Positions 28,242 to 33,895 of a DNA stretch of 39,178 bases are shown piece after piece. Source of the stretch: a virus; UHGV virus genome UHGV-0034768, one strand, 5' to 3'. The translations under genes were made by a program, and so were the position numbers. Each line of letters begins with the position of its first letter. Within the stretch, counting starts at the first letter, position 1. The notes under the pieces were generated by a model that worked only from the letters and a program-made list of their open reading frames with translations, did not search any database and was not told where the DNA came from.

Positions 28242-28400
28242 ATGGCAAAGACCAAAGCTGTACTTAAAGCTCTGGCGACCAATCGAGCTACATACAGGTT
28301 TCTTGCTGCTGTTCTACTTGCTGCTGGCGTTACTGCTGGAAGTCAGTGGGTCGGGTGGGTCGAGACTCTCGTATGTTCTCTGGTGTCTCAGTGTAATTAA
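28242..28400 (+). CDS. small hydrophobic protein (positional analogue of T7 gene 19.5)
   Basis: 52-aa ORF not in the supplied track (under 60 aa); strong RBS ACAGGAGG 8 nt upstream; predicted TM-like segment. Confidence 0.5.
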   Translation: MAKTKAVLKALATNRATYRFLAAVLLAAGVTAGSQWVGWVETLVCSLVSQCN

Positions 28401-28559
28401 CGCAATCATGGTAACGATTCACGAGCGGAAGACCTAAGGTCAGTACGTGGATAAAGACTCACTCTACTGACCTTAGCTACTGTAGTCAAGGACTTTAGGT
28501 AACACCTTAAGAGAAGCTCACTTAGGGTCATCCTACTTATTGGTCTATCCTAGTGTCGC

Positions 28560-28605
28560 CTGACCTACGGTCCTTGACCTACAGTGGCTGTGGCCTACAG
28601 TAGTG
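28560..28605. repeat. short direct repeats (GACCTACGG / CCTACAGT x3) to the right of the putative terminal repeat
   Basis: Read directly; analogous to the T7 CCTAAAG-type repeat arrays flanking the terminal repeat. Confidence 0.6.
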
Positions 28606-28639
28606 ACGATGAGTTTTGGACCAAAAGTTTGAGACCACA

Positions 28640-28835
28640 TCTCACAGTTCAAGAACTTCAAGTCTCCCCATAGGCCCTCTTTCAGTCCAGACCAAAGGCC
28701 CTCCCCAGTCTATCATAAGGTTGGACCTATGGTCAAGACGTTAGGTCGACGATAGGTCTAGGCTATGGCTGGAGGTCAGACGATAGGTAGGGACTATTGG
28801 TTGTCTCCGAGTCTCTATCTGTATACCATAGGTCT
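28640..28835. repeat. candidate direct terminal repeat region (single collapsed copy); probable physical left end near 28640
   Basis: TCTCACAGT...CTCCCCATAGG at 28640 and ...TGTCTCCGAGTCTCTATCTGTATACCATAGGTCTC resemble the T7 left-end terminal repeat (TCTCACAGTGTACGG...CCCCCATAGGGGG ... TGTCTCTCTGTGTCCCTATCTGTTACAGTCTCC). Confidence 0.4.
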
Positions 28836-28839
28836 CAAC

Positions 28840-28926
28840 AACCTACAGTCCTACAGCCTACAGTCTAACAACCTACAGTCACCGACCATCGGTAAAGCCA
28901 TTACCTACAGTCAAAAGACCTACAGT
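28840..28926. repeat. array of about six CCTACAGT short direct repeats
   Basis: Copies at 28842, 28850, 28857, 28872, 28904, 28919; counterpart of the T7 CCTAAAG array between the terminal repeat and promoter A1. Confidence 0.7.
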
Positions 28927-29039
28927 TAATAGACACAAAGCTATAGACTTAAGGTCTAAGACATGTTAGTCAAAGACTATATCCTCTTAGTCACTATGGG
29001 GCCGACGATAGCTTAATCGATATTATTTAAGATTACCTA

Positions 29040-29068
29040 TTGACTATAGGTCTAGACTATGGCCTAAT
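29040..29068 (+). promoter_or_regulatory. candidate host sigma70 early promoter (A1-like)
   Basis: TTGACT at 29040-29045, then a 17-nt spacer and a weak -10 (CCTAAT); collinear with T7 A1 (TTGACTTAAAGTCTAACCTATAGGATACT). Confidence 0.4.
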
Positions 29069-29180
29069 AGCTTCCGTCAACACGACACGGCAACAACCGG
29101 ATAGTGAAGACGCCGGGTCATCCCGGTTAAGTAGACAGCCTGATAAGTCATACGAACAACAGGCAGATGACAGAAAGCAG

Positions 29181-29210
29181 TTGACAAGATGTACCGACTT
29201 AAAGTAGTAT
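29181..29210 (+). promoter_or_regulatory. candidate host sigma70 early promoter (A3-like)
   Basis: TTGACA at 29181-29186, 18-nt spacer, TAGTAT at 29205-29210; flanking sequence CCGGATA.GTAGACAGCCTGATAAGTC closely matches the T7 A2/A3 region. Confidence 0.5.
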
Positions 29211-29398
29211 GTACCACATCGAAACAACAGTGATGACCAACACTGAAATGGTCTACCTGAAGTCCTCTGACTGAAGGGAATGCTCTTTAACAATCTGGAT
29301 AAAACTCTTAATGTGCGCCGATAGCGACTAACTACAGGGCCTTTGAGTATACATCTGAAGGCCCTGACTGATAGTCACTAACTTAAAGGATGGACACT

Positions 29399-29644
29399 AT
29401 GAAACACTTAAGCACAATCACTAATCGCAATGAAATATTCGTGAACACTAAAGGTTATGCGTGGATTCAGCTTAAAGAGCTGACAGGAGCGCGTCACCGT
29501 GTGGTAGTGCGCAAGGTCTCAAGCAAGCCGTTCAGCAACTACAGCGTAGATACTGTGCGTATAGACAACGAGACCTACCTGATAGACTCGCAGATAACCG
29601 TGCGTCCTACAGCGGGCGTCCCAGCTCCTTATTTCGCTAACTGA
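29399..29644 (+). CDS. hypothetical early protein (first gene after the early promoters, upstream of ocr)
   Basis: 82-aa ORF (second ATG chosen, AAAGGA 7 nt upstream); preceded by a structured leader; no recognisable domain. Confidence 0.6.
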   Translation: MKHLSTITNRNEIFVNTKGYAWIQLKELTGARHRVVVRKVSSKPFSNYSVDTVRIDNETYLIDSQITVRPTAGVPAPYFAN

Positions 29645-29732
29645 GAGTGATTAACTACAGGTCGTTAGACTCATAGCGGCCTGACTGATAGCCACTAACA
29701 TACGCACTAACAACTTTTGAGAGGATATAACT

Positions 29733-30077
29733 ATGGAACGTAACGCTAACGCATACTATGAGCTGCTGGCTGCAACCGTTGAAGCATTTAACGAGCGTAT
29801 TCAGTATGACGAAATAGCTGAAGGCGATGAGTACCACGATGCACTGCATGAGGTCGTAGACGGTCAGGTCCCGCATTATTACCACGAGATTTTCACGGTG
29901 ATGGCTGCTGATGGTATAGACCACGAGTTTGAGGACTCTGGGCTGATGCCTGAGACCAAGGACGTAACGCGTATACTGCAAGCTCGCATCTATGAGGCAT
30001 TGTATAACGACGTGTCTGATAGCTCGGATGTGGTCTGGTTTGAGGCTGAAGAGGAAGACGAAGAGGACTGCGAGTGA
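29733..30077 (+). CDS. ocr: Ocr, DNA-mimic anti-restriction protein (T7 gp0.3-like)
   Basis: 114 aa, very acidic; blocks [49 protein letters not shown] match T7 Ocr ([41 protein letters not shown]). Confidence 0.95.
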
Positions 30078-30226
30078 TAGTAACTTATGGTCTCTGCAAG
30101 CACCACGTCACCAACGCCAGGATTTTGGTCAAGACCGGGCGGTTAAACCACGATGCGGCTATGCGTCACCTGAAAGCGGTCTACGAGGACCGCAAGCGCA
30201 CCCACGACAGCTTACACGCTGAGTGA
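30074..30226 (+). CDS. possible gp0.4-like small protein (T7 gp0.4 inhibits FtsZ)
   Basis: 50-codon ORF not in the supplied track, GTG start overlapping the ocr stop; product ..TYGL....[13 protein letters not shown]....LHAE resembles recalled T7 gp0.4 (..QYGL....AMAQLKELYENNK....ESAE). Confidence 0.45.
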
Positions 30227-30292
30227 TAGACGAGAGGTCATCGACTGATAGGTGGCCTCAAAGATTATCACTTACATTGATAGGAGTTAACT

Positions 30293-30382
30293 ATGAACAT
30301 CGGTTACTGGGTATGCCTGTCTCCGGTCATCTTTCTGATAGCTTGGGGCCTTCTGGACGCAATCAAGCGAGGGTCATTCTAA
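30293..30382 (+). CDS. 29-aa hydrophobic peptide (early, gene 0.5-like position)
   Basis: MNIGYWVCLSPVIFLIAWGLLDAIKRGSF with TAGGAG RBS 7 nt upstream; short, so uncertain. Confidence 0.35.
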   Translation: MNIGYWVCLSPVIFLIAWGLLDAIKRGSF

Positions 30383-30576
30383 TGAGCTGGATACTTCTGG
30401 TCATTGGCTACGGGTTAATACTCGCAGTCATCATGAAAGACATCAACAAAGCGCGTACAGTCTACAACTTCAACTATGTGCGTCTGGGTCGCTGGACTGT
30501 ACGTCAACCTAACGGGCGATTCATGCGCAACTTAGCGAACGTCTGGGATATAGCAACTATCGGGAGTAAACTGTAA
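30382..30576 (+). CDS. 64-aa early membrane protein
   Basis: MSWILLVIGYGLILAVIM... single TM segment; TAATG overlap with the upstream peptide; the track ORF 30223-30576 is likely a 5' over-extension. Confidence 0.5.
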   Translation: MSWILLVIGYGLILAVIMKDINKARTVYNFNYVRLGRWTVRQPNGRFMRNLANVWDIATIGSKL

Positions 30577-30902
30577 TGAACAAGTCATACGGGATTAATC
30601 TGGTACACTCTATGGACGCAGAAATGAACATGTTAAGCCTACTGGCTACCGGGTATCGTCACGGAACGTCAAGTCACACCGCACGTCAACAGCAGGAGCG
30701 GGACCGTGTACTACAGGCACGACTCCAGGCAGAGGGCCATAAGGCTGAGCTGATGTGGCTGGCGTATGGTGGACGACCTATCACCGACGATGGTAAACTT
30801 CTGGTCTCAGGCTGGAAGGCGATAGACCAACGGTCAACCATCAAGCACACGACTCACGGTGACTTCAGTCATCTACACGCTAACCCATTGATATGCAAGT
30901 GA
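30576..30902 (+). CDS. hypothetical early protein (108 aa) at the position of the absent gp0.7 kinase
   Basis: ORF with ATG overlapping the upstream stop; no kinase motifs; immediately upstream of the RNAP gene. Confidence 0.6.
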   Translation: MNKSYGINLVHSMDAEMNMLSLLATGYRHGTSSHTARQQQERDRVLQARLQAEGHKAELMWLAYGGRPITDDGKLLVSGWKAIDQRSTIKHTTHGDFSHLHANPLICK

Positions 30903-30907
30903 TTCTG

Positions 30908-30930
30908 ACTTAACTATCACTATAGGACTC
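30908..30930 (+). promoter_or_regulatory. phage RNAP promoter directly upstream of the RNAP gene, ACTTAACTATCACTATAGGACTC
   Basis: Consensus match; +1 G at 30925, 74 nt upstream of the RNAP start codon. Confidence 0.75.
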
Positions 30931-30998
30931 AAGGTCTAAGACTCCAAGTGAAAGACCAAAGAGACTTAAGTGAAAGACTAATAACAAGGACTTTAAGT

Positions 30999-33680
30999 AT
31001 GAGCGTCATCTCCATTGACAAACACGACTTCTCTGATGTGTCTAACGCTATTGAGCCGTTTAACCTGCTGGCTGACCACTACGGGCAAGACCTTGCAGTC
31101 AAGCAACTTCAGCTTGAGCATGAGGCATACACTGAAGGCGAGCGACGTTTCATCAAGAACCTTGAGCGTCAGACAGAGCGCGGTGAACTGGCAGACAATC
31201 AGGTCGCCAAGCCTTTGATGCAGACTCTGGTCCCTAAGATTGCGCAAGCCGTCAAGGAGTGGCATGACGGTCCAGACGGGAAGATGTCAACATCTCGTCC
31301 TAGCGTAGCGTTCACCATGTTGAGCACTGAAGAGAAGGCCGTCAAGGACCGCTCTCTGCGCATCTCCTGTGAGTCTGCTGCGGTTATCATACTGAAGGTC
31401 ATCCTCTCCAAGCTGGTAAAGCCTGAAGGGATACCGATTACACCGATGGCCTCAGCGATAGGTCGCACACTTGAGGACGAAATCCGCTTCGGTCGCATCC
31501 GTGACAAGGAGAAGGAGCACTTCAAGAAGGCGATAGCTGAGAACCTGAACAAGCGAGCCGGGGCATCCTACAAGAAAGCCTACATGCAAGCTGTTGAGAC
31601 CTCCATGCTTGAGCAAGGTCAACTGGAAGATGCGTGGGGAACTTGGAGTCCGACCGAGGCGGTCCATGTTGGCATCAAGATGCTTGAGATTGTCATCCAG
31701 TCCACTCAACTGGTAGAGCTTAAGCGTTATGGTGCTGGCAATGCAGCGGCTGATGTTGAGATGGTCCACCTATCAGACTTCTGGGTCAAGAAGATGGCCC
31801 AACGTGGCTTCAGCCTTGCGGGTATCGCTCCAGTCTATCAACCTTGCGTAGTTCCACCTAAGCCGTGGACGGGTGTCGTAGGCGGTGGGTATTGGGCCAA
31901 AGGACGCAGACCGTTGCCACTGATTCGCTTAGGGTCTAAGTCTGCGGTAGCACGTTATGAGGACGTGTACATGCCTGAAGTCTATGACGCTGTGAACATC
32001 ATCCAGAATACACCTTGGAAAGTTAACAAGAAGGTGTTGGACGTGGTGAACATGGTCGAGAAGCTGAACAACACGCCTATTGATGATATCCCTCAGATGG
32101 AGCCACTGAAGCCTGAAGACTATGCGGGTGAGACTGAAGAGGAACTCAAGGCATGGAAGAAGGCTGCTGCTGGTATCTACCGCCGAGAGAAGGCCCGGCA
32201 GTCACGTAGATTGTCACTGAGCTTTATCGTTAACCAGGCTAACAAGTTCTCTCAGTTCAAGGCCATCTGGTTCCCGTATAACATGGACTGGCGCGGTCGC
32301 GTATACGCTGTGCCGATGTTCAACCCTCAGGGTAACGACATGCAAAAGGGTCTCCTTACTCTGGCAGTCGGTAAGCCTATTGGTGCTGATGGTTTCAAAT
32401 GGCTGAAGGTCCACGGTGCAAACTGTGCGGGTATTGATAAAGTCACCTTCGAGGAGCGCATCAAGTGGGTGGAAGACAACCACGACAACATCATGACTAC
32501 TGCTAAGGCACCGATGGACAGCATTGAGTGGTGGGGTAAGTTAGACTCTCCGTTCTGCTTCCTCGCGTTCTGCTTCGAGTATGCTGGCGTAATGCACCAC
32601 GGCCTATCTTACTCTTGCTCGCTACCGATAGCTTTCGATGGGTCCTGCTCTGGGATTCAGCACTTCAGCGCGATGCTTCGAGATCACATCGGTGGACATG
32701 CAGTAAACTTGACGCCATCCGGTAAGGTCCAAGACATCTACCGCATCGTATCCGACCGCATTGAGGAGGAACTTAAAGTCCTGCTGGTTAACGGTACGGA
32801 CAACGAGATGGTAACTCACGAGGATAAGAAAACTGGTGAGATTACCGAGCGTCTCAAGCTGGGGACACGAGAGCTGTCCCGTCAGTGGCTGACCTACGGT
32901 ATGTCACGCAAGGTTACTAAGCGTTCGGTTATGACTCTGGCCTACGGGTCGAAAGAGTACGGCTTCGCAGACCAAGTTTACGAGGACATCGTGATGCCAG
33001 CGATTGACTCAGGGTCTGGTGCCATGTTCACCGAGCCAAGCCAAGCGTCTCGTTTCATGGCTAAGATGATTTGGGAAGCTGTGAGTGTGACCGTAGTCGC
33101 TGCGGTTGACGCAATGAAGTGGCTTCAAGGTGCTGCTAAGCTGCTGGCTGCTGAAGTAAAGGACAAGAAGACAGGCGAAATACTGAAGCCTTGCCTTCCG
33201 GTACACTGGGTAACACCTGATGGTTTCCCGGTCTGGCAGGAATACCGCAAGAAGGATACAACCCGTCTGAACCTGATGTTCTTAGGGTCGTTCAACCTTC
33301 AGCCTACCGTCAACAGGGGTACGAAGAAAGAGCTGGACAAGCACAAGCAGGAGTCAGGCATTAGCCCGAACTTCGTCCACTCACAAGATGGTAGCCACCT
33401 CCGCAAGACTGTAGTCCACACGCACCGCAAGTATGGCGTAATGTCCTTCGCAGTGATTCACGATAGCTTCGGGACCATCCCGGCTGACGCTGAGTATCTG
33501 TTCCGTGGGGTCCGTGAGACTATGGTAGAGACCTACCGCGACAATGATGTGCTGCTTGACTTCTACGAGCAGTTCGAATACCAGCTTCACGAGAGCCAGC
33601 GCGACAAGTTGCCTGAGCTTCCGAAGAAAGGTAAACTGAACATAGAAGACATCTTGTCTTCAGACTTTGCATTCGCTTAA
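30999..33680 (+). CDS. gp1: DNA-directed RNA polymerase, single-subunit (T7 gp1-like)
   Basis: Start at MSVISIDKHDFSD (T7 MNTINIAKNDFSD) with AAGGA RBS; extensive identity to T7 RNAP including PWTGVVGGGYWA, FPYNMDWRGRVYAV, NCSLP.AFDGSCSGIQHFSAMLRD, HDSFGT, and C-terminal FAFA. Confidence 0.97.
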   Translation: MSVISIDKHDFSDVSNAIEPFNLLADHYGQDLAVKQLQLEHEAYTEGERRFIKNLERQTERGELADNQVAKPLMQTLVPKIAQAVKEWHDGPDGKMSTSRPSVAFTMLSTEEKAVKDRSLRISCESAAVIILKVILSKLVKPEGIPITPMASAIGRTLEDEIRFGRIRDKEKEHFKKAIAENLNKRAGASYKKAYMQAVETSMLEQGQLEDAWGTWSPTEAVHVGIKMLEIVIQSTQLVELKRYGAGNAAADVEMVHLSDFWVKKMAQRGFSLAGIAPVYQPCVVPPKPWTGVVGGGYWAKGRRPLPLIRLGSKSAVARYEDVYMPEVYDAVNIIQNTPWKVNKKVLDVVNMVEKLNNTPIDDIPQMEPLKPEDYAGETEEELKAWKKAAAGIYRREKARQSRRLSLSFIVNQANKFSQFKAIWFPYNMDWRGRVYAVPMFNPQGNDMQKGLLTLAVGKPIGADGFKWLKVHGANCAGIDKVTFEERIKWVEDNHDNIMTTAKAPMDSIEWWGKLDSPFCFLAFCFEYAGVMHHGLSYSCSLPIAFDGSCSGIQHFSAMLRDHIGGHAVNLTPSGKVQDIYRIVSDRIEEELKVLLVNGTDNEMVTHEDKKTGEITERLKLGTRELSRQWLTYGMSRKVTKRSVMTLAYGSKEYGFADQVYEDIVMPAIDSGSGAMFTEPSQASRFMAKMIWEAVSVTVVAAVDAMKWLQGAAKLLAAEVKDKKTGEILKPCLPVHWVTPDGFPVWQEYRKKDTTRLNLMFLGSFNLQPTVNRGTKKELDKHKQESGISPNFVHSQDGSHLRKTVVHTHRKYGVMSFAVIHDSFGTIPADAEYLFRGVRETMVETYRDNDVLLDFYEQFEYQLHESQRDKLPELPKKGKLNIEDILSSDFAFA

Positions 33681-33694
33681 CAGGAGAGATAGTT

Positions 33695-33895
33695 ATGAAA
33701 TTTGCACACAAGCAGACAGGAGTTAAGGGTGGGACTCAAATCGTGACCGTAACAGAACATAATGGCAAGGGTCTGGTGAAGACCACAGTCATTCCTACCG
33801 AGATGTCAAAACAGCTTAACGTCCAGTTCAAGTGGCTGGTTAAGCAGGTGGAGCAGACGCACGAGCAGGTCCTTAAAGAGGCGGCAACCAAATGA
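33695..33895 (+). CDS. hypothetical protein (66 aa)
   Basis: ORF with CAGGAGAGA RBS right after the RNAP stop; no T7 counterpart at this position. Confidence 0.55.
   Translation: MKFAHKQTGVKGGTQIVTVTEHNGKGLVKTTVIPTEMSKQLNVQFKWLVKQVEQTHEQVLKEAATK

Follow-up and report, generated by a model that had tools for sequence, protein, structure and literature searches.

A small early gene overlapping ocr in a K1F-like phage: a divergent T7 gp0.4 homologue and predicted FtsZ inhibitor

A 50-codon open reading frame (ORF) that begins on the stop codon of ocr in a K1F-like relative of phage T7 is best read as a genuine Kayfunavirus early gene and a diverged member of the Phage_T7_GP04 family, whose product is predicted to act, probably, as an inhibitor of FtsZ. 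The window, by which we mean the whole stretch of DNA analysed, comprises 39,178 bp. It is a Kayfunavirus genome of complete length, circularly permuted, from a phage that is K1F-like and related to T7. Over 29700–33700 no phage record exceeds 93.5% identity to it, and that of Escherichia phage Peacock comes closest. The early region lies on the plus strand, in the order 84-aa ORF, ocr, gp0.4-like ORF, three small ORFs and RNA polymerase, and its genes are as follows.

29390–29644, plus strand: 84-aa ORF (phrog_10124)
29733–30077, plus strand: ocr, a gp0.3-type DNA-mimic anti-restriction gene of 114 aa (phrog_2568 'ocr-like anti-restriction', E 7.3e-54; named Ocr in relatives)
30074–30226, plus strand: gp0.4-family gene of 50 aa, the orthologue of K1F gp0.35 and CR44b 0.4 (phrog_5058, E 8e-25)
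30382–30576, plus strand: gene for a 64-aa protein (phrog_2385, EcoDS1 gp0.6-like)
30576–30902, plus strand: gene for a 108-aa protein (phrog_7066, K1F gp0.38-like)
30948–33680, plus strand: single-subunit RNA polymerase gene

That the ORF at 30074–30226 is a real gene is virtually certain. It had originally been predicted from the letters of the DNA as a GTG-initiated frame of 50 codons overlapping the ocr stop, and the sequence and the ORF list reproduce it exactly: a GTG at 30074–30076, 50 sense codons and a TGA stop at 30224–30226. The further suggestion that this is a genuine small early gene is borne out by comparison with relatives. The protein is found by tblastn in 220 phage records, 198 of which cover 80% or more of it, and phrog_5058 is matched by it from end to end. 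When the homologous DNA was extracted from isolates and metagenomic contigs, the frame proved open in all 24 related loci, while in the 14 loci checked the other five frames are all broken by stops. Variable sites are distributed 18/13/28 over the three codon positions, and Nei–Gojobori pN/pS is 0.26–0.29 for the gene's frame, whereas shifting the frame gives 1.18 and 1.77. An overlapping 76-aa ORF in another frame (29992–30222) has stops in relatives and a pN/pS above 1, and is therefore not the conserved one. An exact look-up in a collection of 15 billion sequences did not return the exact window protein.

The same comparison bears on the idea that the ORF is non-coding and owes its conservation to an RNA hairpin, to the 3′ end of ocr or to chance. 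Some overlap of constraints does exist, as a stem resembling T7 R0.5 takes in the stop and the two codons before it, and the ocr stop dictates the first codon; however, the hairpin and ocr together constrain fewer than 15 of the 153 nt. The body of the gene varies mostly at third positions, a pN/pS below 1 and freedom from stops are combined only in the gene's own frame, and homologues are recognizable at the protein level in PP81 and T7, where the DNA has diverged past recognition. Frame-specific selection, together with the Smith–Waterman result given below, effectively refutes the non-coding reading, to which we give next to no credence.

Homology to T7 gp0.4 was assessed against the reference protein taken from NC_001604 (1278–1433), MSTTNVQYGLTAQTVLFYSDMVRCGFNWSLAMAQLKELYENNKAIALESAE. 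The original prediction had pointed to a YGL motif and an A..LK..YE..K pattern with a C-terminal AE, and the true T7 protein does share them with the window protein: (T/Q)YGL near the N-terminus is followed by V, V and G, then by AM..LK..YE..K, and finally by AE at the C-terminus. T7 Gp0.4 (51 aa, phrog_7202) and the window protein (50 aa, phrog_5058) are approximately 36% identical. Pairwise alignment, which had been proposed as the check on this homology, gave a divided answer. Smith–Waterman alignment scored 50 (z 9.7; 14 identities in 39 columns), a score reached by none of 20,000 shuffles, but a BLASTP comparison of the two proteins returned no alignment at E ≤ 100. As Smith–Waterman and the profile methods are clearly positive, the BLASTP miss is a failure of the heuristic.

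Profile comparisons connect the two proteins in both directions. The window protein matches phrog_7202, the T7 gp0.4 family, at E 4.4e-5, and T7 gp0.4 matches phrog_5058 at E 9e-5 (against 4.6e-33 for its own phrog_7202). A hidden Markov model built from T7-type proteins only places the window protein at the top of 20,001 sequences, and profile–profile alignment with hhalign gives a probability of 82% (E 1.1e-5, 40 columns). Pfam family PF26807, 'Phage_T7_GP04', is precomputed on each of the 17 relatives examined (71–86% identical to the window protein) and on all 43 T7-type proteins. Our local Pfam-A scan gave no family match for either the window protein or T7 gp0.4, the PF26807 model being missing from the copy scanned, and an NCBIfam scan yielded nothing for either. 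DUF5993 was rejected as an assignment, with an E value of 0.2 and 12 bits in the Pfam-A scan against a cutoff of 27.

The gene gp03 of Pectobacterium phage PP81, annotated as 'putative cell division FtsZ inhibitor', forms a bridge between the subfamilies, with E values of 4e-10 to the window protein and 2e-10 to T7 gp0.4. At 105 aa (phrog_25044) it is twice the length of the window protein and carries an unrelated N-terminal extension, whereas its C-terminal half is 53% identical to the window protein and 43% identical to T7 gp0.4; its gene follows a SAM hydrolase gene and a 0.6-like gene, not ocr. In tblastn searches, either query reaches the same locus in PP81 and in PPWS4, and searches with the window and T7 queries found two separate copies in no phage. 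More distant gp0.4-like genes, with 52–54% identity, occur in the Klebsiella Przondovirus phages K74_evo2 (1495–1665) and KpV289 (1195–1365). These two phages have a SAM hydrolase or methyltransferase in place of ocr, so the gp0.4-like gene travels independently of ocr.

One could ask whether the shared C-terminal AE is purely a by-product of RNA constraint in the R0.5 stem. To some extent this holds for T7, K1F and the window, but relatives that end in ...HAEDK or ...HAEV, without a hairpin at that place, still carry AE, and removal of the last four residues leaves the Smith–Waterman score unchanged (z 9.5). The proposed kinship with T7 gp0.4 thus finds agreement among Smith–Waterman alignment, reciprocal PHROG matches, hhalign, the PP81 bridge, the PF26807 assignments in relatives and synteny, and on these sequence comparisons we regard homology as very highly probable.

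Synteny is visible in the RNA as well as in the genes. The T7 gene and its counterpart here both start on the ocr stop codon and end within R0.5, the latter being an efficient early RNase III site of T7 (PMC3643576). Two stem-loops are of interest.

29643–29702, plus strand: R0.3-like hairpin upstream of ocr (−18.9 kcal/mol, z only −1.4; partial T7 alignment)
30220–30274, plus strand: R0.5-like stem-loop (minimum free energy −27.2 kcal/mol, z −4.8, none of 200 shuffles as stable)

The downstream stem-loop has the sequence GAGUGAUAGAC..GGUC....GUGGCCU..AUUAUCACUU and is conserved at the nucleotide level with T7 downstream of gene 0.4; T7 and K1F both have a stem-loop of equal fold and sequence. 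Its lower stem includes the last codon of the gene and the stop (GAG TGA TAG). A scan of 28400–31000 against Rfam gave no match, and the RNase III hairpin was identified through comparison with the annotated record of the refactored phage T7.1 (DQ100054.1), in which the counterpart sequence is labelled 'RSL_R0.5' and a putative cut site for RNase III is marked. The upstream hairpin aligns in part with T7 sequence upstream of gene 0.3. Taken together, the two hairpins suggest that they bracket an mRNA carrying ocr and the gp0.4-like gene, which RNase III would release by cleavage; the T7 0.3 mRNA is reportedly a comparable message of ocr and 0.4. A family of hairpin repeats (GAKAGYGAYTAACTACAGG ... 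CCTGACTGATAGYCACTAAC) is also present between the early genes, at 29320–29385, 29643–29702 and possibly 30946–30996, and its sequence points to further RNase III sites, probably R0.3-like and others.

The junction with ocr is where the window gene departs from T7 and from most of its closer relatives. The relevant elements are listed below.

30061–30067, plus strand: Shine–Dalgarno-like purine tract AAGAGGA, read from the sequence and coded by the acidic tail of ocr
30074–30076, plus strand: GTG start codon, made of the last G of the ocr GAG codon and the TG of TGA
30077–30079, plus strand: ATA codon (Ile2), at the position of the ATG start in relatives (junction comparison, 25 loci)

The ocr TGA (30075–30077) overlaps the GTG, with two bases shared in the junction GA-GTGA-TAG; the GTG exists because the ocr ending, GAG TGA, supplies its three letters. 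In most relatives the junction reads GAG-TGATG-GTA, with an ATG that overlaps the ocr TGA by one base and a product beginning MVTYGL.... T7 gene 0.4 likewise starts at an ATG, in a TAATG overlap with its ocr stop, whereas the window gene would start at GTG and yield MIVTYGL.... Across the 25 loci compared, 15 have ATG at the start position and nine have ATA, the window being counted among the nine. The GTG-ATA state is found in the window, RDN8.1, CHX131 and six metagenomic contigs, and IME278 and EcL30g likewise have ATA with an upstream GTG. Scans of IMG/VR returned only three and seven subfamily loci, too few for start-codon statistics, and we therefore used the metagenomic contigs and megablast counts of the 32-nt context in isolate records, where ATG stands in 66 of 70 records and ATA in the other four.

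All nine ATA loci retain GTG at the preceding codon. Since the family ATG is ATA here, GTG is the sole canonical start for the window ORF, and it is very probably the one used. As judged from the junction sequences, the window ATA is a degenerated ancestral start, and the GTG start a secondary state arising from loss of the ATG. The spacing of the purine tract is in keeping with this, in that its GAGG core (30063–30066) lies 7 nt ahead of the GTG and 10 nt ahead of the ATA/ATG position; given this difference, the GTG may contribute to initiation even in loci that have the ATG. The homologous Shine–Dalgarno tract (GAGGAGGA/GAAGAGGA) is present in all ocr-linked relatives, and a ribosome-binding site is annotated at the equivalent place in the phage Peacock record. 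The observation that no locus lacks both ATG and GTG was discarded as evidence of complementarity, as chance alone would give it with a frequency of approximately 24% (nine ATA loci, three non-GTG loci, n = 25). The ocr frame itself ends in three successive stops, TGA TAG TAA (30075–30083), of which the middle one, TAG, is made by the same G-to-A change that abolishes the ATG; relatives read TGA TGG TAA.

Loss of the ATG might also mean that the gene is silent or decaying in the window phage, and that the frame is intact only because the loss is recent. The strong preference for ATG in the isolate records would fit such a reading, as would SH5, CtuP_B1 and CY1, which have no GTG and in which ATG is the only possible start, and the slightly higher pN/pS of the nine ATA loci (0.39, against 0.24 in ATG loci). 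Yet the ORF is intact in all nine independent ATA loci, their pN/pS is well below 1, and each has, in frame, a GTG that stands at a good distance from a GAGG box. The ATA loci are interspersed among ATG loci, which are mostly their nearest neighbours, so the ATA state arose or spread repeatedly without loss of the gene. Silence or decay is accordingly very unlikely, and an expressed gene with a GTG start remains the preferred reading.

What the product does is best approached through T7 Gp0.4, which binds monomeric FtsZ with an affinity of 382 nM and blocks its polymerisation, and which has been modelled as two antiparallel helices on the surface of FtsZ that bears the synergy loop (PMC13423816). 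AlphaFold2 predicts a two-helix hairpin for the window protein, with helices at 9–20 and 26–48 (pLDDT 89.7). A T7-type protein is predicted to have helices at 12–23 and 28–49, in register with the window model, the window protein having one extra residue in the turn between the helices. In BFVD, either model brings up one and the same set of small proteins from T7-like phages (CR8, PP74, fPS-50/59, JB01, CLB_P1 and IME278), in which members of the other model's subfamily are included. The agreement of the two models is not independent, because each alignment mixed both subfamilies. Searching PDB sequences with the family profile gave no match, and hence no solved structure for comparison.

The FtsZ interface of the T7 protein is known from mutants: V15A, V22A, W28A/L, M32A, L35A/P and Y39A each abolish toxicity, and with either substitution at W28 (W28L or W28A) FtsZ binding or toxicity is lost (PMC13423816). 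In all four alignments, the window protein has V12, V19, H26, M30, L33 and Y37 where T7 has V15, V22, W28, M32, L35 and Y39. At five of the six (V12, V19, M30, L33 and Y37) the residue is therefore identical, and these columns rank with the best conserved in both subfamilies; the sixth has changed from Trp to His. In the AlphaFold2 model, positions 26, 30, 33 and 37 lie on one helical face. The His is found in nearly the whole Kayfunavirus subfamily and in PP81 gp03, and since W28L and W28A inactivate T7 Gp0.4, it leaves real doubt over FtsZ binding. On sequence and predicted fold we consider it likely, with that doubt in mind, that the window protein inhibits FtsZ.

It is conceivable, then, that the Kayfunavirus branch consists of true gp0.4 homologues that do not inhibit FtsZ, but have another target or a weaker or different role, and that division is blocked by another early protein. 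Apart from the exchange of the critical Trp, the limited identity to T7 gp0.4 speaks for this, as does heavy turnover of the surface (five of the six positions contacted by the immune protein CapRel have changed, as detailed below), and small phage proteins are known to be retargeted quickly (PMC13423816). Against it stand the retention of the remaining five interface residues, in columns that are among the best conserved of both subfamilies, and the presence of the same His in PP81 gp03, the bridge between them. Moreover, K1F does block division and no other candidate is known. We judge a branch without FtsZ inhibition to be unlikely, and prefer that of a conserved FtsZ inhibitor.

Experimental work on K1F gives this preference its interest. 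Infection by K1F mislocalises FtsZ and produces multi-ring filaments in the host, and the block was ascribed to an unknown protein, as K1F 'lacks the 0.4 gene' according to a negative BLAST search (Dhanoa et al. 2022, PMC9372555). K1F carries an orthologue of the window gene, gp0.35, and the blindness of BLASTP to the similarity with T7 gp0.4 accounts for the 'no sequence similarity' reported for K1F in that study. Homologues were listed only at approximately 88% identity in a more recent study (Zhang et al. 2026, PMC13423816). In the literature searched we found no later paper naming the FtsZ-targeting protein of K1F, and no experimental work tying the gp0.35-type subfamily to gp0.4. On sequence grounds, K1F gp0.35 and its orthologues, including the window ORF, are an obvious candidate for the K1F division inhibitor, and naming this candidate turns the question of the K1F inhibitor into a testable one.

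The proposed mechanism can be divided into expression, folding and action. The gene would be transcribed together with ocr by the host RNA polymerase, the two probably sharing a single message bounded by RNase III hairpins. Translation from the GTG could proceed via ribosomes terminating on ocr, that is by coupling, or via the GAGG box 7 nt upstream. The 50-aa product is expected to fold as two antiparallel helices, and the face formed by V12, V19, H26, M30, L33 and Y37 would contact monomeric FtsZ at the synergy-loop surface. FtsZ polymerisation and Z-ring formation would thereby be blocked, and infected cells would cease to divide and would filament, as with T7 Gp0.4. A block to Z-ring assembly with filamentation is also the presumed outcome for lambda Kil, Rac Kil, SulA, MciZ, T5.008 and P1 Icd, none of which is homologous to the window protein (no sequence or profile match). 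SulA and MciZ likewise cover the interface through which FtsZ polymerises, and Kil and SulA have been described as non-homologous to Gp0.4 and as having different predicted folds (PMC13423816).

T7 Gp0.4 is, in addition, recognized by host defence, the CapRel(Ebc) system being triggered by its complex with FtsZ. CapRel(Ebc) reads residues A12, T14, L16, S19, R23 and K36 of the T7 protein, and the mutation A12K abolishes CapRel activation while leaving toxicity intact (PMC13423816). The corresponding residues in the window protein are K9, H11, T13, R16, K20 and K34, of which only K34 is identical to its T7 counterpart (K36). With five of the six contact residues changed and a Lys at the position of A12, the window protein, going by these residues, probably does not trigger CapRel(Ebc). 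A bolder reading would make the Kayfunavirus branch an immune-evasive FtsZ inhibitor in which the face that binds FtsZ is retained while all surface positions read by guards of the CapRel(Ebc) type have been replaced, and the recurrent loss of the strong ATG start to ATA an adaptive turning down of dosage, not drift. If true, the ATA would be adaptive because the protein is both toxic and a trigger of defence; we regard this as a long shot. The natural change of W28 to His and the altered CapRel-contact surface provide ready variants for separating FtsZ inhibition from immune sensing.

With the Pfam family catalogued and the gene annotated in most relatives, its existence is not news, and the window gene is an added member of a named Pfam family, of ordinary, modest interest. 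The direct orthologues K1F gp0.35, EcoDS1 gp0.35 and CR44b gp0.4 (all phrog_5058; 70–86% identity) are annotated under those names (in CR44b as '0.4') and share the ocr junction, but start at ATG one codon downstream; K1F also has the same downstream hairpin as the window. Elsewhere the annotation is 'hypothetical protein', and in pO2, CY1 and LM33_P1, three of roughly 20 isolate records inspected, the gene is not annotated at all. The gene is thus sometimes missed by gene callers, and it offers an example of how a small, overlapping, GTG-started gene can escape them. In CHX131 (PV611674.1, 501–659) it bears the label 'NinH protein', an assignment we rejected for want of any backing from Pfam, PHROG or NCBIfam. 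The ocr gene, for its part, is labelled 'protein kinase' in CY1 (OM937123.1, 1–504), Vec13 (MH400309) and IME177. The 'NinH' and 'protein kinase' labels are probably mis-annotations.

Between ocr and the RNA polymerase gene (30077–30948), the window has no gp0.7-type protein kinase gene; such a gene is present in T7, PP81 and KpV289, whereas the layout of K1F is that of the window. The genes at 30382–30576 and 30576–30902 begin with stop–start overlaps of the ATGA/TAATG type. In the mechanical ORF list the 64-aa gene is fused, probably in error, into a 117-aa GTG ORF with its start at 30223. Just upstream of the 64-aa gene, at 30293–30382, lies a hydrophobic 29-aa ORF (MNIGYWVCLSPVIFLIAWGLLDAIKRGSF) with a good ribosome-binding site (TAGGAGTTAACTATG). 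It has no PHROG match; a hypothetical protein of the same size, matching it, is annotated in phage Peacock, and it may be a small membrane peptide.
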